Under the pieces are notes generated by a model. The model was given only the letters and a program-made list of their open reading frames with translations. It was not told the DNA's origin and did no database searches. Below are positions 15,053-58,857 of a DNA stretch of 64,000 nucleotides, one piece after another. Every line of letters begins with the position of its first letter. Position 1 is the stretch's first letter. This DNA is from Gomphosphaeria aponina SAG 52.96 = DSM 107014 (GTDB lineage Bacteria; Cyanobacteriota; Cyanobacteriia; Cyanobacteriales; Gomphosphaeriaceae), in NCBI GenBank assembly GCA_016903655.1, contig JADQBC010000001.1, positions 13,371 through 77,370 of the forward strand, in the 5' to 3' direction. The position numbers and the translations under genes were made by a program.

Positions 15053-16273
15053 ATGAAAAGACGCAAATTATTACAATATGCAGGCCTGTTAACAGCAGCC
15101 AGTTTGATTCCCATTGGGATGAATGGTTGGGCATTTCGCAGTGTAGCTCAAACGAATAACCCCAAACGCTTGATTGTTATTTTCCTTCGGGGTGGAGTAG
15201 ATGGGCTGAATGTAGTCGTCCCCCACCAAGAGGCAGATTACTATGAAGCACGCCCTTCCATTGCTTTACCTAAACCTGGGGAAAAAGATGGGGTTTTGGA
15301 TCTTGATGGTCAATTTGGCTTAAATCCTGCATTAAAAGACATTATGCCATTATGGAAGCAGGGGAGTTTAGCTTTTGTCCATGCTTGTGGTTCTCCAGAC
15401 TTCACGCGCTCCCATTTTGATGCTCAGGATTACATGGAAACAGGCACTCCTGGGGTTAAAAAAACTCAAGATGGTTGGATGAACAGACTTTTGGCGGTTT
15501 TGCCTCAAGGGGAAATTACTCAGGCAATAAATTTGGGGGATACTCCCCCAAGAATATTAATGGGAAAAATGCCTGTTACGCAGTTAGCCACAGGAAAAAA
15601 GGGAACTGTACCTTTACCTTTGGATCAGCCTCAGATTAATGAAGCTTTTGACCGTTTATATAGTGGGAATGATCCTGTGAGTTTAGCTTATCAGGAAGGA
15701 GATCAGGCAAGGCAAATTTTGTTGGCTGACCTAACCTCGGAAATGAAAGAAGCTAATAAAGGAGACCCACTCCCTGATAATTTTGCTAGTGATGCTCGCA
15801 GGTTGGCAAAATTAATGGTAGGGGATGCTCGCACTCAGTTAGGTTTTATTGGTTTAGGTGGTTGGGATTCTCATGTGAATGAGAATGCTTTGTTAACTAG
15901 ACTGCTCCTGCCTTTGGGTGAGGGTTTAGCCGCTCTCGCTCAAGAGTTGGGTCCGCTGTACTCAGATACTGTTATTATGGTAATATCAGAATTTGGCCGT
16001 ACCGTGGGGGAAAATGGTAATAATGGGACTGATCACGGACATGGTAATGTGATGTGGGTGTTAGGTGGGGGTATTCGGGGCACTCAGGTTTATGGAGCTT
16101 GGCCAGGTTTAGCTGAGTCTCAACTTTATGAAAGTCGCGATCTGGCTATTACTACTGATTTCCGCGATGCGATCGCCCCAGTGTTAACCCAACACCTGCA
16201 AATTTCCCCAGCTCAACTCTCTCAGGTTTTCCCTGGCTATACTTTTCAAACTAGCCCCAATTTTCTGGGATAG
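15053..16273 (+). CDS. DUF1501 family (sulfatase-fold) protein with Tat-like signal
   Basis: 406 aa with N-terminal RRKLLQYAGLLTAASL and a GTDHGHG motif. It lies immediately downstream of DUF1800. Confidence 0.85.
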   Translation: MKRRKLLQYAGLLTAASLIPIGMNGWAFRSVAQTNNPKRLIVIFLRGGVDGLNVVVPHQEADYYEARPSIALPKPGEKDGVLDLDGQFGLNPALKDIMPLWKQGSLAFVHACGSPDFTRSHFDAQDYMETGTPGVKKTQDGWMNRLLAVLPQGEITQAINLGDTPPRILMGKMPVTQLATGKKGTVPLPLDQPQINEAFDRLYSGNDPVSLAYQEGDQARQILLADLTSEMKEANKGDPLPDNFASDARRLAKLMVGDARTQLGFIGLGGWDSHVNENALLTRLLLPLGEGLAALAQELGPLYSDTVIMVISEFGRTVGENGNNGTDHGHGNVMWVLGGGIRGTQVYGAWPGLAESQLYESRDLAITTDFRDAIAPVLTQHLQISPAQLSQVFPGYTFQTSPNFLG

Positions 16274-16313
16274 CATAATCTGGGGGTTTGGTCGCCAAAC
16301 CCCCAGATTATGC
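16273..16313. terminator. 41-bp perfect palindrome bridging two convergent stop codons (bidirectional terminator candidate)
   Basis: GCATAATCTGGGGGTTTGG tcg CCAAACCCCCAGATTATGC, a 19-bp stem with a 3-nt loop. It spans exactly from the TAG of the DUF1501 gene to the stop of comB. Confidence 0.7.
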
Positions 16314-17032
16314 TAATGACTCACCAGAATACCAGGTTCTTTTTGCAGCGGCAAAATAGAAAGAGTATCTAGTGCAGCACAATATTTGAGATCAGCATGA
16401 CAATTTAAACGTAAAAGACGCTGACCATGACTAGACTGGTGAAATAACTCCAGTAAATTATTTTGCCACTGAGCAAAAAGAGCGATCGCTGCAATTACCT
16501 CATCATTAGCTACAGTATAACCAGCATCCACTAGCGCCAGGGCGATCGCCCCTGCACAAACCGTATCTTCGAGGGAATAACCCCCTTCCCAACCTGATCC
16601 GAGTAACCAAACAGTCTCAGGTTGTTGTTTAATGAGATAATTAACCGCAGATTGACGATTAATTAAAGCAGCAGTAATCACAACCTGGGCATTTTCTACC
16701 CGTTGTAACGCTCGAGTACCATTAGTAGTACTAAGAAATAAACGTCGCCCTTGCATTAACTCTGGGGTACAATCTAGGGGAGAATTACCTAAGTCGCAAC
16801 TAGGCACTTTGGCACCGCCTCTTTCCCCTGCCCGCAAACGCAGATCAGCAGGCCAACTCTCACTCACCTCCATCAACTTATCAATGTTACTAAAAGCTTG
16901 AACTGCTTCAGCCCCAGCATTTAAAGCAGTGGCGATGGTGGTTGTGGCCCGCAAAACATCGATCACCACAGCACAATCAGGTAAGCTGTTAGCAGGAGTC
17001 AATTCGGGAGTATGATAGACAAAAATTTCCAC
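16313..17032 (-). CDS. comB: 2-phosphosulfolactate phosphatase family protein
   Basis: 239 aa with the family-typical [11 protein letters not shown] and TTNGTRAL motifs. Confidence 0.85.
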
Positions 17033-34366: not shown

Positions 34367-34751
34367 ACCCAACAAAAACCCTATCAGTACCCTCTTGAGT
34401 CTTTTGTCTTCAATGATTGCTTATAAATTATTTAACACTGCGCTGATTTCTTTTTTTCCATTTTATGAAAGAAATATTTTTACAATACAAGGGGTTTCAA
34501 AACCTTGTCTCCCAGGACTTGATCTATTTCATAACTTTATTAAAAATGGTATAAACGTCCTCATCATTCCAATATTTGCTATAACAGCAGCTTGAATACC
34601 GAACAAATTAACAGTTAAATAACTAGATAATTATATTAGAAATAAAAATCTCCAGAAAAATTTTATATTTAGCTGGGTGTTTTTCATGTAAATTATAAAA
34701 AGGCAGATCGATTGTTTTGAGAAGTCTAGATGAAAAAGGAGAATAAATTTT

Positions 34752-36041
34752 ATGTCCAGTTCAACTCAAGTTAAGTCTCAAGAAACGAGTCCAAACAGTA
34801 ATAAACTTTACCATCAAATTGTAGTAGTTGGTGGAGGGGCTGGGGGCATAACCGTGACTGCTCAGTTACTCAATCAAAATAAAAATTTGGATATTGCCAT
34901 TATTGAGCCATCAGATAAGCACTATTACCAACCTGCATGGACTTTAGTAGGAGCAGGAAATTATCAAATAGAAGATACAGAAAAAAACGAAAAAGATTGT
35001 ATTCCCTCTGCTGCAACCTGGATTAAAGCCGCTGTCGAACAGTTTGACCCAGAAAATAATTTAGTCATCACTAAAACAGGGCAACAAGTGGGGTATGAAT
35101 ATTTAATTGTTTGCCCTGGGATTCAGCTTGACTGGCATTTAATAAAAGGACTAAAAGAAGCCATCGGCAAAGATGGAGTTACTAGCAATTATGGGAAAGA
35201 ATATGCCCCTTATACTTGGGAAACTATCAAAAACTTTCAAGGTGGTAATGCTATTTTTACCTATCCTGCAACGCCGATTAAATGTGCTGGCGCTCCCCAA
35301 AAAATTATGTATCTTGCTGATGATGCTTTTCGTAAACAAAAAGTCCGCAACCAGTCTAATATTATTTACTGTACAGCAGGAGCAACAATTTTTGCTGTGC
35401 CACAGTACGGGAAATCATTGGAAAAAATAATTGATCGGAAAAATATTCAAGTCAAATATCAACACAACCTCAAAGAAATTAAAGCCGAAAGTAAAGAGGC
35501 AATTTTTGCTGTCACTACTGAAGCAGGAGTCAAAGAAGTTAGCATTAAATATGATTTAATTCATGTCACTCCACCCATGAGTGCGCCTGATTTTATTAAA
35601 AATAGTCCCTTAGCAGTAAAAGATAATTCTGGAGGTTGGGTAGATGTGGACAAATACACATTGCAACATAATGTTTTCAAGAATGTTTTTAGCTTAGGTG
35701 ATGCCTCTTCTTTACCCACCTCAAAAACTGCCGCAGCTATTCGCAAAGAAGCCCCTACTTTAGTAGAAAATCTCCTATCATTAATGGAGTCAAAGGAGCT
35801 AAATGGTAAGTATAATGGTTATGCTTGTTGCCCTTTAGTTACGGGTTATGGGAAAACAATCATGGCAGAATTTGACTATGAGAAAAACCTCACACCTAGT
35901 TTTCCTTTAGATCCGACTAAAGAACGTTATAGTATGTGGCTAGTAAAACGCTATGTTTTGCCTTGGCTTTATTGGAATCGGATGTTAAAAGGCAAAGCTT
36001 TTGAGGGAGATATGTTAAAATTTTTGCACAGCAAAAGTTGA
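34752..36041 (+). CDS. sqr: Sulfide:quinone oxidoreductase, type II (SQOR-like)
   Basis: 429 aa with FAD motif VVVGGGAGG, conserved Cys contexts PIKCAGAPQK and NGYACCPL, and the C-terminal YSMWLVKRYVLPWLYWNRMLKG typical of type II SQR. Confidence 0.9.
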   Translation: MSSSTQVKSQETSPNSNKLYHQIVVVGGGAGGITVTAQLLNQNKNLDIAIIEPSDKHYYQPAWTLVGAGNYQIEDTEKNEKDCIPSAATWIKAAVEQFDPENNLVITKTGQQVGYEYLIVCPGIQLDWHLIKGLKEAIGKDGVTSNYGKEYAPYTWETIKNFQGGNAIFTYPATPIKCAGAPQKIMYLADDAFRKQKVRNQSNIIYCTAGATIFAVPQYGKSLEKIIDRKNIQVKYQHNLKEIKAESKEAIFAVTTEAGVKEVSIKYDLIHVTPPMSAPDFIKNSPLAVKDNSGGWVDVDKYTLQHNVFKNVFSLGDASSLPTSKTAAAIRKEAPTLVENLLSLMESKELNGKYNGYACCPLVTGYGKTIMAEFDYEKNLTPSFPLDPTKERYSMWLVKRYVLPWLYWNRMLKGKAFEGDMLKFLHSKS

Positions 36042-47927: not shown

Positions 47928-48332
47928 ATGCCCCGAACTGCTGTAAAACAATCACCTTTCAAGACCAAATATGATGAGTGTGGGTTGTCCAAGTTATCTC
48001 CCACTGCTTTAACTTTAATGGCCGACTTTTTTAAAGTTCTCTCAGAATCTAGTCGGCTACAAATTGTTTGCTCACTGAAATCTGGGGAGAAAAATGTCAC
48101 CGAAATCATTGAAGCTACTGGTTTAGGACAAGCGAATGTATCTAAGCATCTGAAAATTTTAGCTCAAGCTGGGATTGTTACTCGTTCACAACAGGGAATT
48201 AATGTATTTTATCAAATTGCCAATCCTTTTGTTTTTGAGCTGTGCGAATTAGTGTGTGATTCTCTTGCTGTGCAAATGGAGTATCAAAGCGAAAAGTTAG
48301 AGCAACTCAAAGAGCTTCAAAAATCATTTTAG
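47928..48332 (+). CDS. ArsR/SmtB-family repressor, SqrR/BigR-like (candidate persulfide sensor)
   Basis: wHTH segment (RLQIVCSLKSGEKNVTEIIEATGLGQANVSKHLKILAQAGIV). One Cys sits in helix alpha2 (QIVCSL) and Cys residues sit in the C-terminal helix (ELCELVC), the positions used by SqrR/BigR. ATG at 47928. Confidence 0.75.
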   Translation: MPRTAVKQSPFKTKYDECGLSKLSPTALTLMADFFKVLSESSRLQIVCSLKSGEKNVTEIIEATGLGQANVSKHLKILAQAGIVTRSQQGINVFYQIANPFVFELCELVCDSLAVQMEYQSEKLEQLKELQKSF

Positions 48333-48343
48333 CCATGGAAAAA

Positions 48344-48372
48344 TCTAGAGGTTTTGTCACAAAACCCCTAGA
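48344..48372. terminator. Hairpin between convergent arsR-like and sqr genes
   Basis: TCTAGAGGTTTTG tca CAAAACCCCTAGA, a 13-bp stem with one mismatch. Confidence 0.5.
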
Positions 48373-48400
48373 CTTTTCGTGAACAAATCTATAAAAATTC

Positions 48401-49678
48401 CTAAAAAAGTTCCCGCAAAATATCTGGCTCAAAGGGTTCTCCTTTTAACATTCTGTTCCAATAAAGCCAAGGCAGTGCATAACGTTTGACTAACCACATA
48501 CTATAACGGGGTTTAGTGGGGTTGAGCAGAAAACTGGAAATAGGTTTATTTTCATAGTTAAATTCTGCCATGATTACTTTCCCATAGCCAGTAATTAAGG
48601 GACAACAAGTATAACCATTATACTCTTCATTTACTTGGCGAGATTGAATCAAAGATAAGATATTTTTAACCACAACTGGGGCCTGTTTACGAATAGCTGC
48701 AGCTGTTTTTGAAGTGGGTAAACCTGCTACATCTCCTAAGCTAAAAACGTTGGCATAAAGGTTATGTTGAAGGGTATATTGATTAACATCAACCCATCCC
48801 TGCATTGAACCATTTTGCACGGCTAGTTTACTGTTTTTGATAAATTCGGGAGCGCTCATGGGTGGGGTTACATGGAGCAAGTCATATTTGATGCTAATTT
48901 CTTCTATTTCCGTCCCTGTATTAACAGTAAAAATTGCTTCTTTAGTTTCAGGTTTAATTGCTTTTAAATTGTGCTTAAACTTAACCTCAATATTTTTTTC
49001 TTTGATTACTTTGTCCAGTGACTCAGAATATTCTGGTACACCAAACATCTTTGCTCCTGGTGTACAAAAAATGATATTAGACTTGTTTCTTACTCCACGT
49101 TTGCGTAAAGTTTCGTCAGTCATGTACATGATTTTTTGGGCTGCTCCCCCACATTTTATTGGGGTTACGGGATAGGTAAAAATGGCATTCCCCCCAGAAA
49201 ATTTATTGATACTTTCCCAAGTATAAGGTGCATAGTCTTTGCTATAATTGCTAGTAACGCCGTCTTTTCCTATGGCTTCTTTTAGTCCTTGAATTAAATG
49301 CCAGTCAATTTGAATCCCAGGGCAAACAATTAAATAATTATATTTGATTTCTTGTCTATCCCTAGTAATAACTAGATTGTGATCTGGGTCAAACTTTTCT
49401 ACATAAGCTTTAATCCACTTTGCACCATTAGGAATGCAATCTTGTTCATCTTTTACTGCATTTTCTATCTGATACTGACCGCCGCCTACTAAAGTCCAGG
49501 CTGGTTGGTAATAGTGTTTTTCTGATGGCTCAATGATAGCAAGATCGAGATTTCTATCTTTTTTTAATAACTGAGCAGCAACGGTGATCCCCGCTGCACC
49601 TCCCCCCACAATGACTATTTGGTGAGTGAGTTTATTGTTGGTAATGTTTGCGGATATTTGCTGATTTAATATTGACAT
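48401..49678 (-). CDS. sqr: Sulfide:quinone oxidoreductase, type II (second paralog)
   Basis: 425 aa, about 70% identical by eye to the 34752 copy. Same Cys contexts (PIKCGGAAQK, NGYTCCPL) and the same YSMWLVKRYALPWLYWNRMLKG tail. Confidence 0.9.
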   Translation of the reverse strand: MSILNQQISANITNNKLTHQIVIVGGGAAGITVAAQLLKKDRNLDLAIIEPSEKHYYQPAWTLVGGGQYQIENAVKDEQDCIPNGAKWIKAYVEKFDPDHNLVITRDRQEIKYNYLIVCPGIQIDWHLIQGLKEAIGKDGVTSNYSKDYAPYTWESINKFSGGNAIFTYPVTPIKCGGAAQKIMYMTDETLRKRGVRNKSNIIFCTPGAKMFGVPEYSESLDKVIKEKNIEVKFKHNLKAIKPETKEAIFTVNTGTEIEEISIKYDLLHVTPPMSAPEFIKNSKLAVQNGSMQGWVDVNQYTLQHNLYANVFSLGDVAGLPTSKTAAAIRKQAPVVVKNILSLIQSRQVNEEYNGYTCCPLITGYGKVIMAEFNYENKPISSFLLNPTKPRYSMWLVKRYALPWLYWNRMLKGEPFEPDILRELF

Positions 49679-49847
49679 TTTATTTAGATTTTGGGTTGAT
49701 GGGAAATTTCAATAGTAGATGCACACTTCTACTGAATAAAAAAGTGGTGTTACCCCCCCCCTTGGCAAAAAATATGTATTAATTTAAATAAAATACAAAA
49801 GGTGGGGTTTATTAGGGTTTCGCTCATTGGTCTGAATAACTATTAAA

Positions 49848-50219
49848 CTAAATAGCTTCGCTTTTTCCTGTAAAAGTTACCATGTTTAACCTTCGCCATT
49901 CTAACATTCCACCAGTGATATTAAAGACTTGGGTAAAACCTGCTTTTACAAGTTCTTTGGCAATAATTGGGCTCCGATGGGCACTTAAACAAATAATGGC
50001 AATGGGTTCATCTTTTGGTAAATTTAAAAACCATTCAGGTAACACCCTCTGCCGCAAAATTGGGATATTTCCTAGCAAAATTCGGGGTAAACTGAGATTA
50101 ATTGCTTTTGGTGCATGACCTGTGAGATATTCTAATTTGCTCCGCACATCAATTAATAATGGTTGCTGGTTGAGTTGGGCAAATTCTTGAGGGGAAATAT
50201 TGGTAAAGTAAGCTTTCAT
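49848..50219 (-). CDS. Single-domain rhodanese sulfurtransferase
   Basis: 123 aa with LIDVRSKLEY and the active-site loop CLSAHRS. Confidence 0.85.
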   Translation of the reverse strand: MKAYFTNISPQEFAQLNQQPLLIDVRSKLEYLTGHAPKAINLSLPRILLGNIPILRQRVLPEWFLNLPKDEPIAIICLSAHRSPIIAKELVKAGFTQVFNITGGMLEWRRLNMVTFTGKSEAI

Positions 50220-50259
50220 TTTTGATTGTTTATTGTTAACTGATGGTATTTTTTCTTAT

Positions 50260-51258
50260 TTACACGGCAACGGTTAAATTTTCTGTCCAACGACGTGGCT
50301 CTGTAGCTCTTCTAATATCACGCCAAATTTGTGTGGCGGCTAATGCACCATCCCCAGCAGCAACTACTACTTGATTTAGTCCTACTTTTAAGTCGCCAAT
50401 GGCAAAAATTTTGGGGTGAGAAGTGCGACCCATTTTATCGGTAATTAAGTTATTGCCTTGATAATCTAAATTAATACCTTGAAGATAGGCGTTATGATAT
50501 TTTGAACCCATTGAAATTAAGCCAGTTTCTAACTGAATGGTCGAACCGTCTATTAATTCAACTCCTGTCATTTGATGGTTTTGGCCGCTAAAACTTTTAA
50601 TGGGTGTTTCCACTAAGCGATATCCATGCTCTCGCAATTGGTTTTTAGTTTCCTGGCTTACTTCAAATAGTCCATGAGTAAAGACAGTGATATAGGGGGT
50701 AAACCAACTAAGGTTAAAAATCATTTCTGTGATACTGGTTTCGCTTCCAGCAAATAAGCCACATTGTTTGTCCACCATTTCATAACCATCGCAAACCATG
50801 CAGACATGGAGGTTATAACCTGCGTATTCAAAAACATTCTCCATATCTTCTAAAGGTGGTAAATTGTCAATAATACCACTGGCAACAATTAGATATTTTG
50901 AGCGAAAAACCTGATAAATGCTATTTTGTCTGCCAATTTTTACCTTGACTGCAAAGGCTTCACCGAAGTCTTCTACTGTTTCTACATATCCATTGAGGAA
51001 GTCGCCATCTAGGGAGAGGTAATGTTTTTGACCTTGTTGTAAAAGTACTTTACCTGGGGTGTCTGGGGGCAATCCTAAATAATTATGTAGTTCTTGCATC
51101 CAGAAGGAGCGGGCCTTTCCTTTGTCAACGATTAAACTTGAGAGGCGGTAACGTTGGAGGTAGATACCTGCAGATAATCCTCCTGCTCCTCCCCCGACAA
51201 TTACAACATCGTAAATTTGGTTACTTCTTTCCTGGAGATTCTTTTTCGAGAGCTTCAT
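50260..51258 (-). CDS. Thioredoxin-reductase-like flavoprotein disulfide oxidoreductase
   Basis: FAD motif VVIVGGGAGGLSAG and a CxxC (HVCMVCDGYE) at the TrxB position. The second dinucleotide motif looks degenerate (CGLFAGSETS). Confidence 0.75.
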   Translation of the reverse strand: MKLSKKNLQERSNQIYDVVIVGGGAGGLSAGIYLQRYRLSSLIVDKGKARSFWMQELHNYLGLPPDTPGKVLLQQGQKHYLSLDGDFLNGYVETVEDFGEAFAVKVKIGRQNSIYQVFRSKYLIVASGIIDNLPPLEDMENVFEYAGYNLHVCMVCDGYEMVDKQCGLFAGSETSITEMIFNLSWFTPYITVFTHGLFEVSQETKNQLREHGYRLVETPIKSFSGQNHQMTGVELIDGSTIQLETGLISMGSKYHNAYLQGINLDYQGNNLITDKMGRTSHPKIFAIGDLKVGLNQVVVAAGDGALAATQIWRDIRRATEPRRWTENLTVAV

Positions 51259-51562
51259 TCTTTCCTCTCCTTATTTATAAGGGGCGCTCACTGGAACTTA
51301 ACTATGTTTACCTTTTTTCTAATATAACCAATTGCTCATATCATTGTCAAGGGGTTGCCCAAATTTTTTTTCTTTTCCGTGGCTCTTGTACCCTAGAAGC
51401 TTTGACTGCTCAGGGTTATGGCGTTTTTAGAAAAGGAAAAAAATTTTTTTGGGGACTTGACATAATTGGTTTACTATGTGGTAAGATAATTATTAGGTTC
51501 AAAAAAAGGTTTTGGGCGATGGCCCCTTCTCTCAATTCCAAATATTCAAGGAGGTTGACTTG

Positions 51563-52012
51563 GTGGCAGATATCAAGAAGATCAATGAGCAACTTAGTAT
51601 AGCCCCACAGCTAACGCCAGCAGAAATCGACCAATTACCTGAATTGGGTTTTAAATCAGTGTTGAATTTGCGCTCGCCTGCAGAAAATGGCTTTCTCACT
51701 GAGGAAGCGCAGCAAATCGAAGCTTTGGGAATAGCTTACACTCTAACCCCAGTCACCCTTCCCTCTCTCAACGAAGCTTTAATTACTCAGGTTGTCAAAC
51801 AAATTGATAATTTACCCAAACCAGCTTTGATTCATTGTGGTTCTGCATTACGTGCTGGTTATATGGTGATACTTTATCAAGCAACTAAAGAAGGAATGAC
51901 TTTAGATGCTGCAAAACAGTGGTCAAATGAACTGGGTTTTGATATGATGCGCAACCCACAACTGAACCAGCATTTTGAAGACTATATCAATAAAATTATC
52001 TGGAGGAAATAA
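51563..52012 (+). CDS. DUF442 (Blh N-terminal, phosphatase-fold sulfur-transfer-associated) protein
   Basis: IKKINEQLSIAPQLTPAEIDQL...HCGSALRAG. I prefer the GTG at 51563, preceded by AAGGAGG, over the track start at 51512. Its stop overlaps the next start (TAATG). Confidence 0.7.
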   Translation: MADIKKINEQLSIAPQLTPAEIDQLPELGFKSVLNLRSPAENGFLTEEAQQIEALGIAYTLTPVTLPSLNEALITQVVKQIDNLPKPALIHCGSALRAGYMVILYQATKEGMTLDAAKQWSNELGFDMMRNPQLNQHFEDYINKIIWRK

Positions 52013-52710
52013 TGATGCTATTTCGTCAACTCTTCGACCAAGAATCAAGTACTTATACTTATTTAATTGCGGATCCAGTAACAAAAGAGGCTGTGTTAGT
52101 CGATCCAGTTTTGGAACAAGTAGAGCGTGACCTCAAATTAATCCAAGAGTTAGGTTTAACTCTCAAATATGGCTTAGAAACCCATCTTCATGCAGACCAT
52201 ATTACGGGAACGGGTAAACTGCGGGAAATTACAGGATGTCAAGGAATTGTACCTGAAAATGCTCAGGCAGCTTGTGCGGACAGACATATCAAACATGGGG
52301 AAGTTTTACAACTCGGAGAAGTAAAAATAGAGGCGATCGCTACTCCAGGTCATACAGATAGTCACATGGCATATTTAGTGGGAGACAAACTACTAACTGG
52401 GGATTCCTTATTTATTCGTGGTTGTGGTCGCACCGACTTCCAAAGTGGGGATGCAGGAATTTTGTATGATTCCATCACTCAAAGGTTATTTACCCTCCCA
52501 GATGAAACCCTAGTGTATCCTGGTCACGATTATCGGGGACATACTGTCTCGACGATTGGGGAAGAAAAGCAACTCAACCCCCGTTTAGCTGGACGGGGGC
52601 GTGCTGATTTCATTCAAATAATGGACAATCTCAATTTACCTAATCCGAAAAAAATCATGGAAGCAGTTCCTGCAAATCAAGCTTGTGGCAAAGTTGCTGT
52701 GCCAGTTTAA
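52012..52710 (+). CDS. Persulfide dioxygenase (ETHE1-like MBL-fold)
   Basis: FRQLFDQESSTYTYLIAD, the metal motif THLHADH, GHTDSH, and GDSLFIRGCGRTDFQ. Confidence 0.85.
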   Translation: MMLFRQLFDQESSTYTYLIADPVTKEAVLVDPVLEQVERDLKLIQELGLTLKYGLETHLHADHITGTGKLREITGCQGIVPENAQAACADRHIKHGEVLQLGEVKIEAIATPGHTDSHMAYLVGDKLLTGDSLFIRGCGRTDFQSGDAGILYDSITQRLFTLPDETLVYPGHDYRGHTVSTIGEEKQLNPRLAGRGRADFIQIMDNLNLPNPKKIMEAVPANQACGKVAVPV

Positions 52711-52774
52711 ATCAGTTATCAGTTATCAGTTGCCCAATTATCTAATTTAAATACTCACATTTATTTTAAGCAAC

Positions 52775-53311
52775 ATGACTCAACTCAAAGACAAACTAAA
52801 AGTAATTAATTCCAAAACTCTCAAACAATTGTTAGCTCAAGAAACCGTGACTTTAGTTGATGTGAGAGAACCTTCTGAATATGCAGGAGAACATATTGAG
52901 GGAGCAAATTTAATTCCTCTTTCTAGTTTTGACCCTAATAAAATACCGCAAGAGTCAAATAAAATCTTAGTTCTTTATTGTCAAAGTAGCAACAGGTCTG
53001 CGCAAGCGGCACAGAAATTATTGTTAACAGGCTGTGAAGAAGTTACTCATTTGGAAGGAGGATTAAATGCTTGGAAACAGTTAGGTTTTCCTACCAAAAT
53101 TAATCAAAATGCTCCTATTAGCATTATGCGTCAGGTGCAAATAATAGCGGGTTCTTTGGTGCTAACAGGTACTTTACTCGGTGCTTTTGTCTCTCCCTGG
53201 TTTTTAATTCTCAGTGGTTTTGTGGGCGCTGGGTTGACTTTTGCAGGCATTACTAATACTTGCGCTATGGCAATTTTATTGGCAAAATTGCCTTACAATA
53301 AACGAATTTAA
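52775..53311 (+). CDS. Rhodanese domain fused to DUF2892 membrane domain (YgaP-like)
   Basis: LVDVREPSEY, the active-site loop CQSSNRS, and a C-terminal two-TM hairpin. Confidence 0.8.
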   Translation: MTQLKDKLKVINSKTLKQLLAQETVTLVDVREPSEYAGEHIEGANLIPLSSFDPNKIPQESNKILVLYCQSSNRSAQAAQKLLLTGCEEVTHLEGGLNAWKQLGFPTKINQNAPISIMRQVQIIAGSLVLTGTLLGAFVSPWFLILSGFVGAGLTFAGITNTCAMAILLAKLPYNKRI

Positions 53312-53322
53312 ATTGTAATTAA

Positions 53323-53385
53323 TGGGCGGGTTTTGATATAAAGATTCTAGTTTTGAGTCTTAGATTATCCCTAAACCAGCCCCGA
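53323..53385. repeat. R2-family repeat inserted between island genes
   Basis: gggcgggttttgatataaag...ccctaaaccagccccg. Confidence 0.45.
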
Positions 53386-53399
53386 CAAAAGAAGGACTA

Positions 53400-54167
53400 A
53401 TGATAACAACAATTATCGGTCATATTTTAGCTGTTGCTATTGGGATGACTCTCGGATTAATCGGTGGTGGTGGTTCAGTTTTAGCTGTACCAACTTTAAT
53501 TTATGTGATGGGTATAAGCTCAAAAGAGGCGATCACCATGACTTTAATTATAGTTGGCATAGTTAGTTTAATTGGCATTATTCCCCACTGGCGGCAAGGT
53601 AATGTTAATCTCAAAATTGCTACTGTTTTTATTCCTCCAGCTATGCTTGGCACTTATTTGGGTGCTACATTGGCTTTACTCCCTTTTATTAGCGATACCT
53701 TCCAGCTTATTTGTTTTGGCATCATTATGTTATTAGCCAGTATTTTAATGATTGGTAAAGGAAGTAGTAAAGAAGAAAAAAATAAGATTATTGAGCCGAA
53801 AAAAAACAAATATCAGTGGTTGGTAATTCCCGCCGAAGGTTTAGGTGTAGGTATTGTTACTGGATTTGTGGGCGTTGGTGGGGGTTTTGCGATTATCCCA
53901 GCTTTGGTTTTAATTGGTGGTATTCCGATGAAAGAGGCGATCGGTACGTCTTTATTAATAATTGCTTTTAATTCTGTTACAGGAGTGATAAAGTATCTCA
54001 GTCAGGTTTCCATCGATTGGAATTTAACAATTTCTTTCACTCTCGCTGCTACTATCGGTACGGTCAGTGGTGCTTATTTGAGTAGAGTTATTCAGGCAAA
54101 AGAACTACAAAAAGTTTTTGGGTATTTTGTCCTGGCGGTAGCTGTCTTTGTTTTGATTCGCCGATAG
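53400..54167 (+). CDS. TauE/SafE family sulfite exporter
   Basis: 255-aa polytopic protein with duplicated GGGGSVLAVP / GVGGGFAIIPAL motifs. Confidence 0.85.
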   Translation: MITTIIGHILAVAIGMTLGLIGGGGSVLAVPTLIYVMGISSKEAITMTLIIVGIVSLIGIIPHWRQGNVNLKIATVFIPPAMLGTYLGATLALLPFISDTFQLICFGIIMLLASILMIGKGSSKEEKNKIIEPKKNKYQWLVIPAEGLGVGIVTGFVGVGGGFAIIPALVLIGGIPMKEAIGTSLLIIAFNSVTGVIKYLSQVSIDWNLTISFTLAATIGTVSGAYLSRVIQAKELQKVFGYFVLAVAVFVLIRR

Positions 54168-54276
54168 GGCAAATGTTAAGTTTTGTTAAGAAAAATCAAA
54201 AATGAGTTTTTTTTTCTCCTAAACAGTTTACCATATGATAATATGATGATTAGTTAGCAAGGATAAGGGTTGATTG

Positions 54277-54990
54277 ATGGGGAAACTATTTGACGAACTG
54301 AAAAAAGACATCTTGTACCAGCATGGTATGAATGCCTGTCTCAATTGTGGGGTGTGTACTGCGGTGTGTCCAGCAGCGGAATTTAATGATTATTCTCCCA
54401 GAGAAGTAATGAACACCGTGCAATCGGAATGTGACGAAGACATTAAGGAATTATTAAAATCGGACAAAATCTGGTATTGCGGGCAGTGTTTTTCCTGCAA
54501 GACAAGATGTCCGCGAGGCAACAGTGCAGCTTCAGTAATTCTGGCTTTGCGCCGACTATCCATCCGTCATGGTTACTTTGCAGAGTCAGAAAAAGGAAGA
54601 CAGCAACTATTTGCTAAAAGGGTATTTGGACAAAATATGCTTGATCGAGGTTATACCTTACTCGCTAAAAACATTTCTCCCGCACATTTCCCCGAATTAG
54701 GAGAAAACTGGGAATACTATTACGAACACATGGAAGAAATGCGCCAATGGTGGGATGTTCCAATGGATTTAGAAAACAGTCCTGGTTCACACCGCCAAAT
54801 TCCCGAACAAGATTTAGATGAAATACGAGCCATTTACCAAAAAACTGGTGCAATTGCCTTAATGGAAGCAGTGGAAAAAGCCATGGAAAAGAAACTGGGC
54901 AGTAAAGCTGAAGTAGAAAAATATTGGCAAACCTGGTTAGAAACAGGGGACAGCAGAAATTATGAACTCAAAGGAGAAAACAAATCATGA
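54277..54990 (+). CDS. hdrC: Heterodisulfide reductase subunit C-like (sHdrC1)
   Basis: Two 4Fe-4S motifs, CLNCGVCTAVCP and CGQCFSCKTRCP. ATGA overlap with the next gene. Confidence 0.8.
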   Translation: MGKLFDELKKDILYQHGMNACLNCGVCTAVCPAAEFNDYSPREVMNTVQSECDEDIKELLKSDKIWYCGQCFSCKTRCPRGNSAASVILALRRLSIRHGYFAESEKGRQQLFAKRVFGQNMLDRGYTLLAKNISPAHFPELGENWEYYYEHMEEMRQWWDVPMDLENSPGSHRQIPEQDLDEIRAIYQKTGAIALMEAVEKAMEKKLGSKAEVEKYWQTWLETGDSRNYELKGENKS

Positions 54991-56033
54991 AATTAGCAGG
55001 AAAAGTGAAAGCATGGGAAAAACATCAAAAAGCAGTTCCCAGTGTTGATGAACCAAATGGAAAAGTCTGGGGTTGTTTTCGGAGCTGTTTCCTCCAGAGT
55101 GCTGCACCTTATACAGAAGGTATTGCTTATAAAATCCTCAAAAATGACTTAGGGATGGACTTACGGGAAGCACCAGGTCATACTTCCTGTGGTGCAATTG
55201 GCTATCACGGAGACGTATCTAATTTAGAAACCCAGATGGTGGTGGCTGCAAGGAATTTTTCTGTGGCTCATTACGAACTGGGAGTAAATAATCTTTTTTC
55301 CTTCTGTGTCACTTCTTTTGCTAACTATACAGAAGTGATCAAACTCTGGGAAGAAGAACCAGAGTTGAAAGAATACACAGAAAAAATGTTGAAAGAAACT
55401 ACGGGCAGGGAATTTTGGATTCCTCGCGTATCAGGGGGAAGGCCTTCTGTAGTTCATGCTTCTGATGTATTTTTTGCCAATCGCCACTTCCTGGCGGCAA
55501 AAGCTAAGTATAGTTTGAAAGGAGTTAAGGCTACTGACCATGTTGGCTGCCACTATGCAAAAATTTTTCCTGAAGAGTCCATGGGTGGTGCTGAATTTCC
55601 TCAAGTTTTAGTGGGGATATTAGAAGCTTTTGGGGCTGAAGTAGTGGATTATCCAGAAAGAAGACATTGCTGCGGGATGGGTTTCCGTCAGTGTGCTTTC
55701 CCAGAAAACCGAGACTATACTGCGGGTAGTGTTTATAAAAAGTTACAGAGTTTGAAAGAAGCTCACCCAGACTGCAAACTAATTTTAACTAATTGTCCAG
55801 GGTGTACGGTTTTTCTGGATGCTGAACAAGGAACCATTAAAGAAGTGTTAGAAGAAGAGTTCAATGTCAGTATTTTAGATTATGCACAATTAACAGGTTT
55901 GTTATTAGGTTATGACCCTTTTAAAGATTGTGGTTTAAATGCGAAAGCAGTGGCGATCGAACCTTTACTGGATCAGATTGGTATTCCTTACGATAAATCC
56001 AAAACTGCAGAACAAAGAAGACGACCTTTTTAA
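54987..56033 (+). CDS. hdrB: Heterodisulfide reductase subunit B-like (sHdrB1)
   Basis: 348 aa. The first CCG domain is degenerate (TSCGAIG). The second is intact (HVGCHY...HCCGMGF...NCPGC). Confidence 0.8.
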   Translation: MKLAGKVKAWEKHQKAVPSVDEPNGKVWGCFRSCFLQSAAPYTEGIAYKILKNDLGMDLREAPGHTSCGAIGYHGDVSNLETQMVVAARNFSVAHYELGVNNLFSFCVTSFANYTEVIKLWEEEPELKEYTEKMLKETTGREFWIPRVSGGRPSVVHASDVFFANRHFLAAKAKYSLKGVKATDHVGCHYAKIFPEESMGGAEFPQVLVGILEAFGAEVVDYPERRHCCGMGFRQCAFPENRDYTAGSVYKKLQSLKEAHPDCKLILTNCPGCTVFLDAEQGTIKEVLEEEFNVSILDYAQLTGLLLGYDPFKDCGLNAKAVAIEPLLDQIGIPYDKSKTAEQRRRPF

Positions 56034-56053
56034 CAGTTATCAGTTAAAAAACT

Positions 56054-56135
56054 GTAGGGGCAGGTTTGTAGGGGCGGGTTTGGTGACAATTTAGTAATCA
56101 AAACCATAACCTCGAGCTCAAAACCCGCCCCCTCC
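56054..56135. repeat. R2-family repeat between hdrB1 and hdrA
   Basis: gtaggggcaggtttgtaggggcgggtttgg...ctcaaaacccgccccctcc (inverted GC-rich ends). Confidence 0.5.
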
Positions 56136-56235
56136 TCTATCAGTTATCAATTTCATTATTAATTGTTCATTGATAATTGAATGACTAATGAGTTAAAAAA
56201 TTCAAAAATTAAAAATTAAAAAATTGAGGAAAACA

Positions 56236-57348
56236 ATGAACAAAAACATAGTTGTAATTGGGGGCGGTGTAGCAGGAATGGCAGCCGCAGGAAAATTAAG
56301 AGAATTTGGATATGAAGTAACTTTAATCGAAAAGGAAAAAGAGTTAGGCGGTAATGTTAAAAACTGGTATAAAGTCTTTCCTGATTTTACCGATGCTGCT
56401 GAAATTATCAATAAATTGAAAGGGGAATTAAAGGGAATCAGGGTGATTAACAATGCCACTGTAACTCAGATTAATGGAGTAGCTCCTAACTTTGAAGTAA
56501 TTACTTCGACTGGGGAAAAAATTGACGCTGCTTCTATTCTTGTGGCTACAGGATTTAAGCCTTTTAATGCTGCTTTGAAAGAGGAATATGGCTATGGAAT
56601 TTATAACAATTCTATCACTTCTATTGAATTGGATGCCATGCTGAAACAGCATCAAGTGCAAACTGCATCAGGAAAACCGCCTCAGAAAATAGCCATGATC
56701 CACTGTGTGGGTTCGCGAGATCAACAGGTAAATAATAATTATTGTTCCCGTGTTTGTTGTACTAATACTGTTAAAGTTGCCATTGAAATTAAAGAGCAAA
56801 TTCCTGATTGTGAAATTTACTGTTTGTATATGGATATTCGGGTATTTGGACGGGGTTATGAGGAATTGTATCGTACATCTCAAGAAAAATTTGGCGTTCA
56901 ATTTATTCGCGGGCGACTTTCTGAAGCTGGGGAAAAAACTGATGGTAGTTTATTGTTGCGGCTAGAAGATACTTTGACTGCTAAACCTATGCGTTTAACT
57001 GTGGATATGTTGGTTTTAATGGTAGGAATGGTGGGTAATACTGAGTTAGCTGAAATTGCAGATTTAAAGGTGGGTTGCGATCGCTTTTACACCACTGCCC
57101 ATGAGCAATATTCTAACAATAATTCTGAGAAAAAAGGTATTTTTCTAGCAGGAACAGCAACGGGTCCTAAAGCTATTATGGAATCTATTACTGATGGGCG
57201 TTCAGCCGCAGCAGAAATAGCAGCTTTTTTGCATAGTTTCACCCTAGAAAATATGAGCTGTGATTTATCTTTCAGACAGCCTTTCGCCTCAATGATTGCA
57301 GGAGGAAATCAGTTTTGTAATACCCCACCCCAACCCTCCCCTTATTAA
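56236..57348 (+). CDS. hdrA: Heterodisulfide reductase subunit A-like flavoprotein (sHdrA)
   Basis: FAD motif VVIGGGVAGMAAA and the Fe-S Cys cluster HCVGSRD...YCSRVCC. The last ~35 aa read into a repeat insertion and may not be native. Confidence 0.8.
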   Translation: MNKNIVVIGGGVAGMAAAGKLREFGYEVTLIEKEKELGGNVKNWYKVFPDFTDAAEIINKLKGELKGIRVINNATVTQINGVAPNFEVITSTGEKIDAASILVATGFKPFNAALKEEYGYGIYNNSITSIELDAMLKQHQVQTASGKPPQKIAMIHCVGSRDQQVNNNYCSRVCCTNTVKVAIEIKEQIPDCEIYCLYMDIRVFGRGYEELYRTSQEKFGVQFIRGRLSEAGEKTDGSLLLRLEDTLTAKPMRLTVDMLVLMVGMVGNTELAEIADLKVGCDRFYTTAHEQYSNNNSEKKGIFLAGTATGPKAIMESITDGRSAAAEIAAFLHSFTLENMSCDLSFRQPFASMIAGGNQFCNTPPQPSPY

Positions 57349-57385
57349 GGGGAGGGAGTCAGCATTTCCCCCCTGCGGGGGGGTT
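57325..57385. repeat. GC-rich double-hairpin insertion in the hdrA-hdrC2 spacer
   Basis: CCCTCCCC ttattaa GGGGAGGG, followed by CCCCCC tgc GGGGGG. Confidence 0.6.
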
Positions 57386-57415
57386 ATCCGTTTAAATTTG
57401 GTAAGGAATAAAACA

Positions 57416-57997
57416 ATGGTAAAGAAAAAATGTTTTTTTGGGATTAAAACCGATCGCCAGGTTGACGGCGACAAAATGAATGCAAAATTATCTCAAGAAG
57501 TTTTGGCCCAAGGGGGTGAAAATGCTGCAATTAATGCTTGTATGCAGTGTGGTACTTGTAGCGGTGGTTGTCCCAATGCAGAAAGAATGGATCTGTTACC
57601 CAGAAGTCTGGTGTTGATGGTACAACGGGGAGAATGGGAAAAAGTGCTTAAAAGTCAAACTCTCTGGCTCTGTAGTTCATGTCATACTTGCACCTCTCGC
57701 TGTCCTCGTGGGGTTCGTCCTACAGATGTCATTGAAGCAGTAAAGGCGATCGCCATTAGGGAAGGAATTAAAAACGATTCTGTAAGATTTAATCAGATAT
57801 TTGTGGAGTTAATTGAAAAAAGAGGCATTCTTTTTGAACCTGAATTAATGCTGAAATATGGCGGACTTAAAGCCCTTGTTGATCAAGCAGAATTGGGGAT
57901 TAAATTAACTTTAAAAGGTAAATTATCTCCCTTCCCTCCCAAAGTCAAAGAACCAAAAAAATTTAGTGAAGCATTAACAAAAGCGGTGAAAAAATGA
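57416..57997 (+). CDS. hdrC: Heterodisulfide reductase subunit C-like (sHdrC2)
   Basis: CMQCGTCSGGCP and CSSCHTCTSRCP. I prefer the ATG at 57416 (or 57476), because the track start at 57296 lies inside the repeat. ATGA overlap with hdrB2. Confidence 0.75.
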   Translation: MVKKKCFFGIKTDRQVDGDKMNAKLSQEVLAQGGENAAINACMQCGTCSGGCPNAERMDLLPRSLVLMVQRGEWEKVLKSQTLWLCSSCHTCTSRCPRGVRPTDVIEAVKAIAIREGIKNDSVRFNQIFVELIEKRGILFEPELMLKYGGLKALVDQAELGIKLTLKGKLSPFPPKVKEPKKFSEALTKAVKK

Positions 57998-58857
57998 AAT
58001 ATTCTTATTATCCAGGATGCAGCCTTCATTCTTCGGCAAAAGAGTTTGACATCTCCACCAAAGTGGTAATGAAGGAGTTAGAAATTGAACTAGAAGAACT
58101 TCAGGACTGGTCATGTTGTGGGGGTTCTATTGCAGGAGGAGTTGATCACAATATTGGAATGGCATTAGCAGCGAGAAATGTAGTTTTAGCCCAAAATCAA
58201 AATCAAGACTTATTAGCAGCTTGTTCTGGTTGTTACAATAAGTCAGCTAAAGCAGCTCAAGCCTTAGAAAATGAGCAAGAAAGAGCAAAGATTACCTCAA
58301 TTCTTACTGATATGGGAATGTCGGTTTCTAATCAGAAAATTAAAGTCAGAAATGTGGTAGATGTTTTGGTCAATGATTTAGACATTGCACCCAAAATTAA
58401 AAAACCACTAACAGGATTAAAAGTTGCTTGTTATTATGGTTGTCTTTTAACTCGACCAGCGGATATTACGGGCTGGGATTCACCAGTTTTTCCCATGTCA
58501 TTAGACAAATTAGCACAAAAATGTGGAGCTGAAGTAGTAGATTTTCGTTCAAAAACTAAATGTTGTGGTGGGCCCATTTTAGTTCCCCAGGAAGAAGTTG
58601 CTTTTGAAATGACGAAAAAACTCCTAGATGAAGCAAAATCCCTCGGTGCAGATTGTATAATTTTAGCCTGTCCCTTGTGTTCAAATAATCTTGAATTAAG
58701 ACAGCCTGATATTGAGAAAAAGTATAATGTTAACTATAATTTGCCCATTCTTTATATCACAGAATTAATTGGGTTAGCATTAGGAATTAAACCGAGAAAA
58801 TTGGGATTAGATAAACATCTTGTTTCCACAAAACCTGTTTTAGCTAAAGTTAGTTAA
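57994..58857 (+). CDS. hdrB: Heterodisulfide reductase subunit B-like (sHdrB2)
   Basis: Two complete CCG domains: YYPGC...SCCGGS...ACSGC and YYGC...KCCGGP...ACPLC. Confidence 0.85.
   Translation: MKYSYYPGCSLHSSAKEFDISTKVVMKELEIELEELQDWSCCGGSIAGGVDHNIGMALAARNVVLAQNQNQDLLAACSGCYNKSAKAAQALENEQERAKITSILTDMGMSVSNQKIKVRNVVDVLVNDLDIAPKIKKPLTGLKVACYYGCLLTRPADITGWDSPVFPMSLDKLAQKCGAEVVDFRSKTKCCGGPILVPQEEVAFEMTKKLLDEAKSLGADCIILACPLCSNNLELRQPDIEKKYNVNYNLPILYITELIGLALGIKPRKLGLDKHLVSTKPVLAKVS

Follow-up and report, generated by a model that had tools for sequence, protein, structure and literature searches.

What do five genes resembling those of heterodisulfide reductase (Hdr) do in a cyanobacterium, next to genes for the oxidation of sulfide? 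The question is raised by positions 47928-58857 of a 64-kb window, i.e. the whole stretch of DNA analysed (64,000 nucleotides of contig JADQBC010000001.1), of Gomphosphaeria aponina SAG 52.96 = DSM 107014, where the block hdrC1-hdrB1-hdrA-hdrC2-hdrB2 lies beside genes for a sulfide:quinone oxidoreductase (SQR), a persulfide dioxygenase (PDO), rhodaneses, a TauE-type exporter and an ArsR-type regulator. In some cyanobacteria, the anaerobic oxidation of sulfide is known to yield thiosulfate (de Wit & van Gemerden 1987) or sulfite (Rabenstein et al. 1995), both as cited by Hamilton et al. 2018 (PMC5776472), in whose words 'the second sulfide-oxidizing enzyme ... remains hypothetical' (PMC5776472; see also PMC5019231). 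The hdr cluster is a concrete candidate for the enzyme that, in the anoxygenic photosynthesis of cyanobacteria, carries sulfide oxidation past the stage of elemental sulfur.

Here, I describe the gene content, family placement, conservation and linkage of this cluster, as well as an operator motif that it has in common with sulfide-oxidation genes. The hdr genes belong to a distinct lineage of short HdrA, HdrB1 and HdrB2 proteins, without linked LbpA or sHdrH. The initial annotation had taken them for a complete set of the sulfur-oxidising sHdr system, which overstates the case; its sulfur reading is largely right.

A distinct lineage of Hdr-like proteins

Gene calls were based on a list of open reading frames (ORFs) together with Pfam and NCBIfam scans, the identities being refined against the sequences of solved structures. 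All 13 genes initially annotated in the island were recovered by these means, with the same coordinates, strands and domains. The five hdr genes are:

54277-54990, plus strand: HdrC1-type ferredoxin subunit (Fer4_8 and Fer4_17; two CxxCxxCxxxC motifs)
54987-56033, plus strand: HdrB1-type CCG subunit, probable catalytic subunit, 348 aa (one CCG domain detected)
56236-57348, plus strand: short HdrA-type FAD/[4Fe-4S] flavoprotein, 370 aa as annotated (full-length match to 6TJR)
57416-57997, plus strand: HdrC2-type ferredoxin subunit, 193 aa (Fer4_8, 2.5e-11; two CxxCxxCxxxC motifs)
57994-58857, plus strand: HdrB2-type subunit with two complete CCG domains (CCG x2, 5.1e-26)

The start of hdrC2 is set at 57416 because its orthologues measure 193-201 aa, the mechanical ORF start at 57296 being over-extended. 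The order hdrC1B1A(hyp)C2B2, which had been read here as the sHdr signature, holds as far as C1-B1-A-C2-B2 is concerned, but the 'hyp' gene is absent: the 67-nt gap between hdrA and hdrC2 contains no sHdrH gene and only G+C-rich hairpins. At the end of hdrA (57320-57390), these hairpins, CCCTCCCCTTATTAAGGGGAGGG and CCCCCCTGCGGGGGG, make its reading frame ~15-25 codons longer than in orthologues of 344-363 aa; they are probably an inserted repeat or an intra-operon stem-loop.

The Fe-S and CCG motifs, all of which had been called intact, are so in HdrC1, HdrC2, HdrA (four cluster Cys, invariant) and HdrB2, in which all 10 cluster Cys of methanogen HdrB are conserved. The N-terminal CCG domain of HdrB1 retains three of five Cys, with S-C-G and C-x-x-S replacements, namely Cys41 to Ser or Thr ('SCG/SCT' for 'CCG') and Cys81 to Ser ('C-x-T-S-F'). 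In a column-by-column alignment, this motif and CCG[MF]GFR[QH] are common to cyanobacteria, Altiarchaeales, Bacteroidales and sHdr; the degenerate motif is a signature of sHdrB1 and no sign of damage. Cys is kept in the cyanobacterial HdrB1 where sHdrB1 has Asp (C231 position), and HdrB1 is the most conserved of the subunits (86-92% identity among cyanobacteria). HdrA matches the sHdrA of Hyphomicrobium denitrificans (6TJR) along its full length (2-336 to query 7-332, E 9e-60), whereas methanogen HdrA proteins match it in the core only.

In neighbour-joining trees (Kimura distances, 100 bootstraps), all B1-type proteins fall into one clade of the HdrB tree (bootstrap 99), in which cyanobacteria and Altiarchaeales group together (98), are joined by Bacteroidales (100) and are sister to the proteobacterial sHdrB1 (100), while the HdrB2 proteins of cyanobacteria pair with sHdrB2 (100) and are separated from three methanogen HdrB. 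The HdrA tree separates short HdrA, including sHdrA (100), from methanogen and long multi-domain HdrA. For A, B1 and B2 alike, the cyanobacterial sequences make up a separate clade (100) that does not fall within the corresponding proteobacterial sHdr clade (100). The kinship that the initial annotation expected of phylogeny is hence found in the pairing of B1 with sHdrB1 and of B2 with sHdrB2, and not as a placement inside the canonical clades; judging from these trees, the Hdr-like complex branches deeply, as a sister lineage to the sHdr complex of sulfur oxidisers.

BLAST likewise pairs C1 with C1 (125 bits to Hyphomicrobium sHdrC1 vs 40 to sHdrC2), B1 with B1 and B2 with B2, HdrC2 being ambiguous between C1 and C2; identities to the Hyphomicrobium subunits are 29% (C1), 28% (B1), 35% (A), 30% (C2) and 33% (B2). 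In a representative-library search, the Hyphomicrobium sHdrA (206 bits) would rank below the 150 matches listed (at least 242 bits), many of which are long multi-domain HdrA proteins; as the scores are multi-stretch ones, this comparison carries little weight. The subunits are not of the GlcF/LldEF type, an outcome envisaged at the outset, NCBIfam scores for these families (GlcF and LdhH) being marginal. SdhE scored 197 bits vs 209 for HdrB, both below cut-off, and this identity is excluded by the HdrA and HdrC partners rather than by phylogeny.

Type I sHdr is defined by the genes shdrC1B1AHC2B2, is named sHdr-LbpA and, according to Tanabe et al. 2024 (PMC11094781), always comes with DsrE/TusA transferases. 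As a reference, a genome-contig scan seeded with 6TJR yielded 80 sHdr loci, all proteobacterial (74-99% identity), of which the 54 of at least 15 kb were used for gene counts. They were compared with 11 cyanobacterial loci (259 kb), comprising the window and ten further loci (L001-L003, L087-L090 and L167-L169), the loci rather than whole genomes being searched. In Hyphomicrobium sp. GJ21 (L004, 99% to 6TJR) the order is LipS1-LipT-LipS2-sLpl-DsrE3C-sHdrC1B1AHC2B2-x-LbpA. Across the proteobacterial set, LbpA and sHdrH are each present in 54/54 loci and DsrE3C in 53/54, followed by sLpl (46/54), LipS1 (42/54), LipS2 (41/54) and LipT (30/54); SQR occurs in 10/54 and PDO in 1/54.

The genes that the initial annotation had proposed to look for (lbpA, dsrE, tusA and those for lipoate assembly) were searched for in the 11 cyanobacterial loci, and none was found there. 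LbpA (tblastn, E<=0.1), DsrE3C (tblastn), sHdrH (tblastn with Hyphomicrobium sHdrH) and the lipoate-assembly genes sLpl(AB), LipS1, LipS2 and LipT all stand at 0/11; four proteobacterial TusA queries gave no match at E<0.3, and the Pfam families GCV_H (PF01597), DsrE and TusA are missing from the called gene lists. Such a set, with subunits 28-35% identical to their Hyphomicrobium counterparts and clades apart from those of proteobacterial sHdr, is not a complete one as the field defines sHdr.

Among the matches listed, the nearest HdrA outside cyanobacteria is that of Altiarchaeales (52-59% identity), whose HdrB1 and HdrC1 are 70-72% and 66-69% identical to those of the window; besides hdrA and two hdrC1-hdrB1 pairs, the locus comprises a NifX-like gene and encodes small ferredoxins as well as a fused Fer4-CCG protein of 630 aa. 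A group of Bacteroidales and anaerobic metagenomes has HdrA and HdrB1 proteins at 43-50% and 40-46% identity to the window, and a layout of hdrC1-hdrB1-hdrA-fer4(~113 aa)-fused CB (~590 aa) (L085, L086, L091-L166); no LbpA, sHdrH, DsrE, PDO, TauE or rhodanese is present in the 36 loci of this type of at least 8 kb. The list of members for ten short HdrA representatives contains only 'Bacteroidales' names. Incidentally, the NifX-like protein (PF02579, Nitro_FeMo-Co) lies beside hdr both in Altiarchaeales (L084, 8172-8543) and in Coleofasciculus (L167, 9267-9671), and may be a conserved accessory or cofactor carrier of this Hdr lineage.

Linkage to sulfide oxidation and a common palindrome

The five-gene cluster occurs widely among cyanobacteria, being conserved in ~105 protein clusters (90% identity level) from more than 20 genera among the matches listed. 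The first ~107 of the 120 protein clusters listed consist of HdrA homologues with 61-83% identity, from genera including Nostoc, Calothrix, Halotia, Richelia, Phormidium, Oscillatoria, Planktothrix, Coleofasciculus, Desertifilum and Sodalinema, as well as Stenomitos, Myxosarcina, Gloeothece PCC 7424, Cyanothece, Snowella and Geminocystis; a single 90%-identity cluster of HdrB1 has 341 member sequences. One HdrA (P0039, 74% identical), labelled as an 'Actinomycetota bacterium' metagenome-assembled genome among otherwise cyanobacterial matches, probably stems from a cyanobacterial contig that was binned wrongly, and not from a transfer. The window itself matches a metagenome-assembled genome of Gomphosphaeria aponina, with P0001 at 100% identity.

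A full-text literature search found no paper linking sHdr to cyanobacteria. The cluster has been noticed, in that the genome paper of Cyanobacterium sp. DS4 mentions 'hdrB-hdrC-hdrA-hdrB-hdrC ... future study is required' (PMC12060301) and that of Phormidium pseudopriestleyi lists hdrA2B2C2 under methane metabolism (PMC8002359). The initial annotation was right that the system is uncharacterised in cyanobacteria, no function having been assigned to it, though it is neither rare nor unmentioned there.

All ten further loci contain the hdrC1-B1-A-C2-B2 block, and in 11/11 cyanobacterial loci at least one of SQR-II, PDO, Rhd-YgaP, TauE, ArsR, DUF442 and DDOR lies beside hdr, with the local order shuffled:

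Gloeothece citriformis PCC 7424 (L001): TauE, rhodanese, ArsR, rhodanese, PDO and Rhd-YgaP beside hdr
Richelia sinica: PDO-RhdYgaP-TauE, divergent from hdrC1
Phormidium ETS-05, Sodalinema and L089: SQR directly upstream of hdr
Coleofasciculus (L167): ArsR divergent from hdrC1, with an operator-like palindrome directly upstream
L168 (HdrA 67% identical): PDO-rhodanese fusion, RhdYgaP, TauE and hdr, in a window-like order

The palindrome, 20 bp long with the consensus ATATAACCA-N2-TGGTTATAT and a perfect copy in Richelia, was found through 10-11-mers shared among promoter regions and a subsequent mismatch-tolerant search, a search for exact palindromes having revealed none common to three or more promoter regions. 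Allowing up to 3 mismatches, 12 sites occur in the 259 kb vs 0.45 expected from block shuffles (at most 2 in 20 shuffles) and, allowing up to 4, 18 sites vs 3.05 expected. Of these 18, 14 lie within ~300 nt upstream of relevant genes, i.e. hdrC1 (7 loci), sqr, pdo, arsR and the divergent TrxR-like/DUF442 genes of the window. Where the flanking sequence was read, the palindrome is bounded by a -35 box (TTGACA/T) on one side and a -10 box on the other. The window copy at 51322-51341 has this position in a promoter-like site of the minus strand (51350-51321; TTGACA-18-TATATT, 11/12 matches), the best promoter-like match in the island; a consensus terminator and promoter scan of the island showed no enrichment over shuffles (25 vs 30 expected), and only this single site, which overlaps the palindrome, was used from it. 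A further copy (34617-34636, 4 mismatches) precedes the ATG of a second SQR gene at 34752 by ~115 nt, the distance to the aligned start being 128 nt.

Such a palindrome has the form expected as the signature of a dimeric repressor and, being shared, ties hdr to sqr and pdo; it points to a single putative regulon of hdr, sqr, pdo and arsR. The candidate repressor is probably the adjacent ArsR/SqrR-like protein, whose identity in this role I infer. It scores 83 bits with the NCBIfam ArsR/SmtB model, remains sub-threshold with TsoR and BigR (47 bits with BigR, cut-off 155), and matches R. capsulatus SqrR (6O8K) and BigR (3PQJ). Its Cys50 in helix alpha2 ('RLQIVCSL') is aligned to the SqrR Cys in 'RLMIMCYL', and Cys108 and Cys112 of the C-terminal helix are near in position to C107, the second sensing Cys of SqrR. 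Orthologues of the regulator adjoin hdr in L001 and are divergent from hdrC1 in L167.

Low-oxygen genes adjoin hdr in some loci. In L001, psbA (15236-16324) neighbours the hdr/PDO cluster, with a palindrome-like site at 15167, ~50 nt upstream. Ala80, Leu158 and Ala286 in the psbA product are the signature of the low-oxygen D1' isoform, and all Mn-cluster ligands are retained. The regulon may thus also switch the D1 isoform of photosystem II (PSII). Alternative Rieske (PetC-like) genes adjoin hdr in L001 (5898-6431) and L003 (12821-13408), and in L003 the Rieske gene is followed by genes of the low-O2 type, for rubrerythrin, heme oxygenase and HemN.

In the window, the features other than hdr are:

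34752-36041, plus strand: second type II SQR paralogue, outside the island, possibly of the same regulon (tblastn match and ORF)
47928-48332, plus strand: ArsR-family regulator, SqrR/BigR-like, candidate persulfide-sensing repressor (HTH_5, 1.9e-14)
48338-48378, no strand: hairpin of 20+20 nt between the convergent arsR and sqr (inverted repeat, 90% complementary, 1-nt loop)
48401-49678, minus strand: type II SQR, 425 aa (full-length to human SQOR)
49848-50219, minus strand: single-domain rhodanese, 123 aa (PF00581, 7.5e-17; active-site loop CLSAHRS)
50260-51258, minus strand: TrxR-family flavoprotein, 332 aa, with a CMVC redox motif (Slr0600/Gll2934 orthologue, DDOR type)
51259-51562, no strand: divergent control region with the operator-like palindrome ATATAACCAATTGCTCATAT at 51322-51341
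51563-52012, plus strand: DUF442/BLH_phosphatase protein, a sulfur-transferase domain of the Blh N-terminal type (PF04273, 7e-07)
52012-52710, plus strand: PDO of the ETHE1 type (4YSB, 1.5e-91)
52775-53311, plus strand: rhodanese fused to a YgaP-like membrane domain (PF00581, 1e-19; PF11127, 2.8e-08)
53400-54167, plus strand: TauE/SafE-family anion (sulfite) exporter (PF01925, 2.1e-50)

SQR, PDO, rhodanese and TauE had been read as a sulfide-to-sulfite/thiosulfate route with an ArsR/SqrR-like regulator, and domain and structure-sequence matches bear this out. SQR is of type II because it scores 401 bits with human SQOR (E 6e-119, residues 19-425, full-length) vs 66 bits with the type I SQR of Aquifex (3HYV); its lone paralogue, ~12 kb upstream, has 429 aa and is 69% identical. 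PDO, which has the metallo-beta-lactamase fold, also matches human ETHE1 (4CHL, 2e-71) and 2GCU (2.2e-68). The DUF442 gene has a GGAGG 8 nt before its GTG start at 51563, and its matches to TIGR01244 and to the Blh N-terminus are below the NCBIfam cut-off; its stop codon and the PDO start codon overlap by one base at 52012. The two proteins correspond to the two halves of the fused Blh of the BigR operon, NF040641 matching both, and represent this known fusion in split form.

The TrxR-like gene lies upstream of, and on the same strand as, the rhodanese and SQR genes. Its product matches Synechocystis Slr0600 (5JRI, E 8.5e-130) and Gloeobacter Gll2934 (5N0J, 4.7e-117), DDOR-type proteins without a known physiological substrate, and orthologues are found near hdr in two other cyanobacteria (L088, ~18155; L090, ~11177), all of which hints at a part in persulfide or disulfide handling.

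The possibility of a compositionally distinct, horizontally acquired island was rejected because its GC content (0.37-0.40) is the same as in the remainder of the window. Two 66-nt segments, in the gaps between rhd-YgaP and tauE (53324-53389) and between hdrB1 and hdrA (56065-56130), form an inverted-repeat pair (76% complementary) carrying GGGGCGGGTTT / AAACCCGCCCC motifs; the arsR-sqr hairpin is related to the first of them, and all three look like copies of a small interspersed palindromic repeat.

Proposed function and its alternatives

By the established enzymology of these families, type II SQR produces sulfane sulfur while reducing quinone, rhodaneses transfer the sulfur of persulfides and are able to convert sulfite into thiosulfate, PDO depends on O2 for sulfite formation, and TauE exports sulfite. 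In the mechanism proposed here, the island would be a sulfide/persulfide regulon, probably under ArsR/SqrR-like repression through the 20-bp palindrome inside its promoters. SQR would convert H2S into sulfane sulfur and deliver electrons to plastoquinone, with rhodanese, DUF442 and rhodanese-YgaP as persulfide carriers; when O2 is present, PDO would turn persulfide into sulfite, and TauE would export sulfite or thiosulfate. The five hdr genes would encode an Fe-S flavoprotein complex of the HdrA2-C1B1-C2B2 type, independent of a dedicated lipoate-binding LbpA and acting as the O2-independent counterpart of PDO: carrier-bound sulfane sulfur would be oxidised to sulfite at the modified non-cubane cluster site of HdrB1, HdrB2 would carry out the accompanying thiol/disulfide chemistry, and electrons would leave via HdrC and HdrA. 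The outcome would be the formation of sulfite and thiosulfate during anoxic, sulfide-driven photosynthesis.

The O2-independent oxidation to sulfite of carrier-bound sulfane sulfur derived from SQR, for which I infer substrate, direction of reaction and electron acceptor as well, is put forward tentatively, at slightly less than an even chance. It is favoured because hdr follows PDO and TauE downstream on a common strand, because HdrB1 is extremely conserved, and because sulfidic conditions that inhibit PSII deprive PDO of its co-substrate.

Several points weigh against it. LbpA and its lipoylation machinery, which characterised sHdr needs, being absent from the cyanobacterial loci, the chemistry may differ. 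Raw BLAST scores of HdrB1 and HdrB2 with methanogen HdrB are roughly equal to those with sHdrB1 and sHdrB2. The trees are of the neighbour-joining kind only, take their canonical sHdr references from Proteobacteria only, and leave out Aquificota, archaeal and type II sHdr as well as SdhE/TfrB and Flx-Hdr sequences. Directly upstream of hdrC1 in the window, there is only a weak copy of the palindrome (54225, 5 mismatches). Finally, the closest relatives, Altiarchaeales and Bacteroidales, are strict anaerobes without nearby sulfur genes, a distribution that would fit a general disulfide-reductase role at least equally well.

In this main rival reading, the complex would reduce (hetero)disulfides, persulfides or polysulfides, with ferredoxin or NAD(P)H as the donor, and thereby regenerate thiol carriers for the SQR/rhodanese pathway or turn stored zero-valent sulfur into sulfide in dark anoxia, as sulfur respiration; it is possible, if rather unlikely. 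Besides the anaerobic relatives devoid of sulfur-oxidation genes, it is favoured by HdrB2, which keeps both canonical CCG clusters and scores 176 bits with methanogen HdrB vs 170 bits with sHdrB2, and by a dark anaerobic sulfur reduction that Oren and Shilo reportedly described in Oscillatoria in 1979. The sHdr model, as outlined in PMC11094781, also regards sHdrB2 itself as a disulfide reductase, with sHdrB1 as the proposed catalytic subunit for sulfane-sulfur oxidation. Against it stand the position of hdr downstream of PDO and a sulfite exporter on the same strand (window, L168), the operator-like palindrome that hdr shares elsewhere with sqr and pdo, suggestive of a common oxidative pathway, and the modified cluster of the B1 type, associated with sulfur oxidation in sHdr; moreover, a sulfide-making reductase induced together with SQR would amount to a futile cycle.

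A canonical sHdr-LbpA pathway, with the LbpA, lipoate-assembly, TusA and DsrE genes located elsewhere in the genome, would account for the C1-B1-A-C2-B2 order, the short HdrA, the B1-type motif and the pairing of the B1/B2 paralogues, and cyanobacteria have a housekeeping GcvH which could in principle be recruited. It is nonetheless improbable in view of the contrast between canonical loci (LbpA and sHdrH 54/54, DsrE3C 53/54) and cyanobacterial ones (0/11), of subunit identities as low as 28-35%, and of cyanobacterial clades lying outside those of proteobacterial sHdrA, sHdrB1 and sHdrB2. sHdrH is a required core gene by the field's definition, as given in PMC11094781, and the text in which the same paper surveys GTDB, with sHdr in 20 phyla, leaves cyanobacteria unnamed. 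That the complex is not related to sulfur at all but is a chance neighbour with a general redox or electron-transfer function, e.g. in anoxic or fermentative metabolism, is very improbable, for the sulfide genes are linked to hdr in 11/11 loci from distant cyanobacterial lineages with shuffled gene order and hdr, sqr, pdo and arsR have the operator-like motif in common, even though genome papers placed the genes under hydrogen or methane metabolism (PMC12060301, PMC8002359), relatives in other phyla lack a sulfur context, and low-O2 genes (D1', HemN, alternative Rieske) adjoin hdr in some loci as well.

A wider version of the O2-independent oxidation proposed above would have the LbpA-independent, sHdr-related complex be the 'second sulfide-oxidising enzyme', pass the extra electrons to photosynthetic or respiratory transport, and be controlled together with SQR, PDO and, in some strains, the low-O2 D1' isoform by one persulfide-sensing ArsR repressor via ATATAACCA-N2-TGGTTATAT; as a whole, I regard it as doubtful, albeit conceivable. 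The question of the second enzyme is directly testable in Coleofasciculus, since its genome carries the hdr cluster (P0012, L167) with ArsR and an operator-like site directly upstream.

If O2-independent oxidation by the Hdr-like complex is true, a function would be at hand for a conserved five-gene cluster in hundreds of cyanobacterial genomes, whose present annotation reads 'FAD-dependent oxidoreductase / CoB-CoM heterodisulfide reductase' and which has been placed under methane or hydrogen metabolism, and sHdr-type chemistry would prove able to do without a lipoate-binding protein regarded in the field as integral. Cyanobacterial anoxygenic photosynthesis bears in turn on models of Proterozoic sulfidic oceans and on modern mats, and the Bacteroidales and Altiarchaeales relatives, together with the operator motif, widen the question to a large uncharacterised Hdr-like family.

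Comparison with known systems

With type I sHdr (Hyphomicrobium, Aquifex, Acidithiobacillus), the cyanobacterial cluster shares the gene order C1-B1-A-C2-B2, a short HdrA of ~350 aa with one [4Fe-4S] and FAD and no ferredoxin domains, an HdrB1 bearing CCGxGFR and, towards its N-terminus, S-C-x / C-x-x-S, an HdrB2 with two full CCG motifs, and the association with an ArsR-type regulator and rhodaneses. Unlike type I sHdr, it has no linked sHdrH, LbpA or lipoate-assembly genes, rhodaneses and DUF442 in place of linked DsrE3C and TusA, an HdrB1 that is ~100 residues shorter at the N-terminus (348 aa vs a mechanical ORF of 475 aa), and linkage to type II SQR, PDO and TauE. Type II sHdr (shdrC1B1AH-B3, with a fused C2B2 and etfAB-emo) differs in that C2 and B2 are separate genes here; no ETF or EMO genes are present in the island or in the called gene lists of the cyanobacterial loci.

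The methanogenic HdrABC (5ODC, 8RVU) has in common with it the HdrA core, the ferredoxin fold of HdrC and an HdrB2 that possesses all 10 cluster Cys and is 31% identical. In contrast to methanogen HdrA (~650 aa), the window HdrA is devoid of the N-terminal, inserted-ferredoxin and C-terminal ferredoxin domains; two distinct HdrBC pairs are found here, with no Mvh/Fdh partners and no CoM/CoB metabolism.

The clusters of Bacteroidales and Altiarchaeales contain the closest homologues of HdrC1, HdrB1 and HdrA, with the same B1 motif. In them, a ferredoxin of 112-114 aa and a fused Fer4-CCG protein of 590-630 aa replace the separate C2 and B2, the fused CB recalling in layout the sHdrB3 of type II sHdr without its ETF partners; they come from anaerobic habitats and have no SQR, PDO, TauE or rhodanese context and no LbpA.

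As to the detoxification operons controlled by SqrR, BigR or CstR (Xylella BigR-Blh, S. aureus cst, Synechococcus PCC 7002 SQR/PDO), the Hdr-like complex, absent from all of them, sets the cyanobacterial island apart from a type of operon with which it shares an ArsR-type regulator, putatively of the two-Cys kind, DUF442 and PDO, rhodaneses, a TauE-type exporter and a type II SQR.

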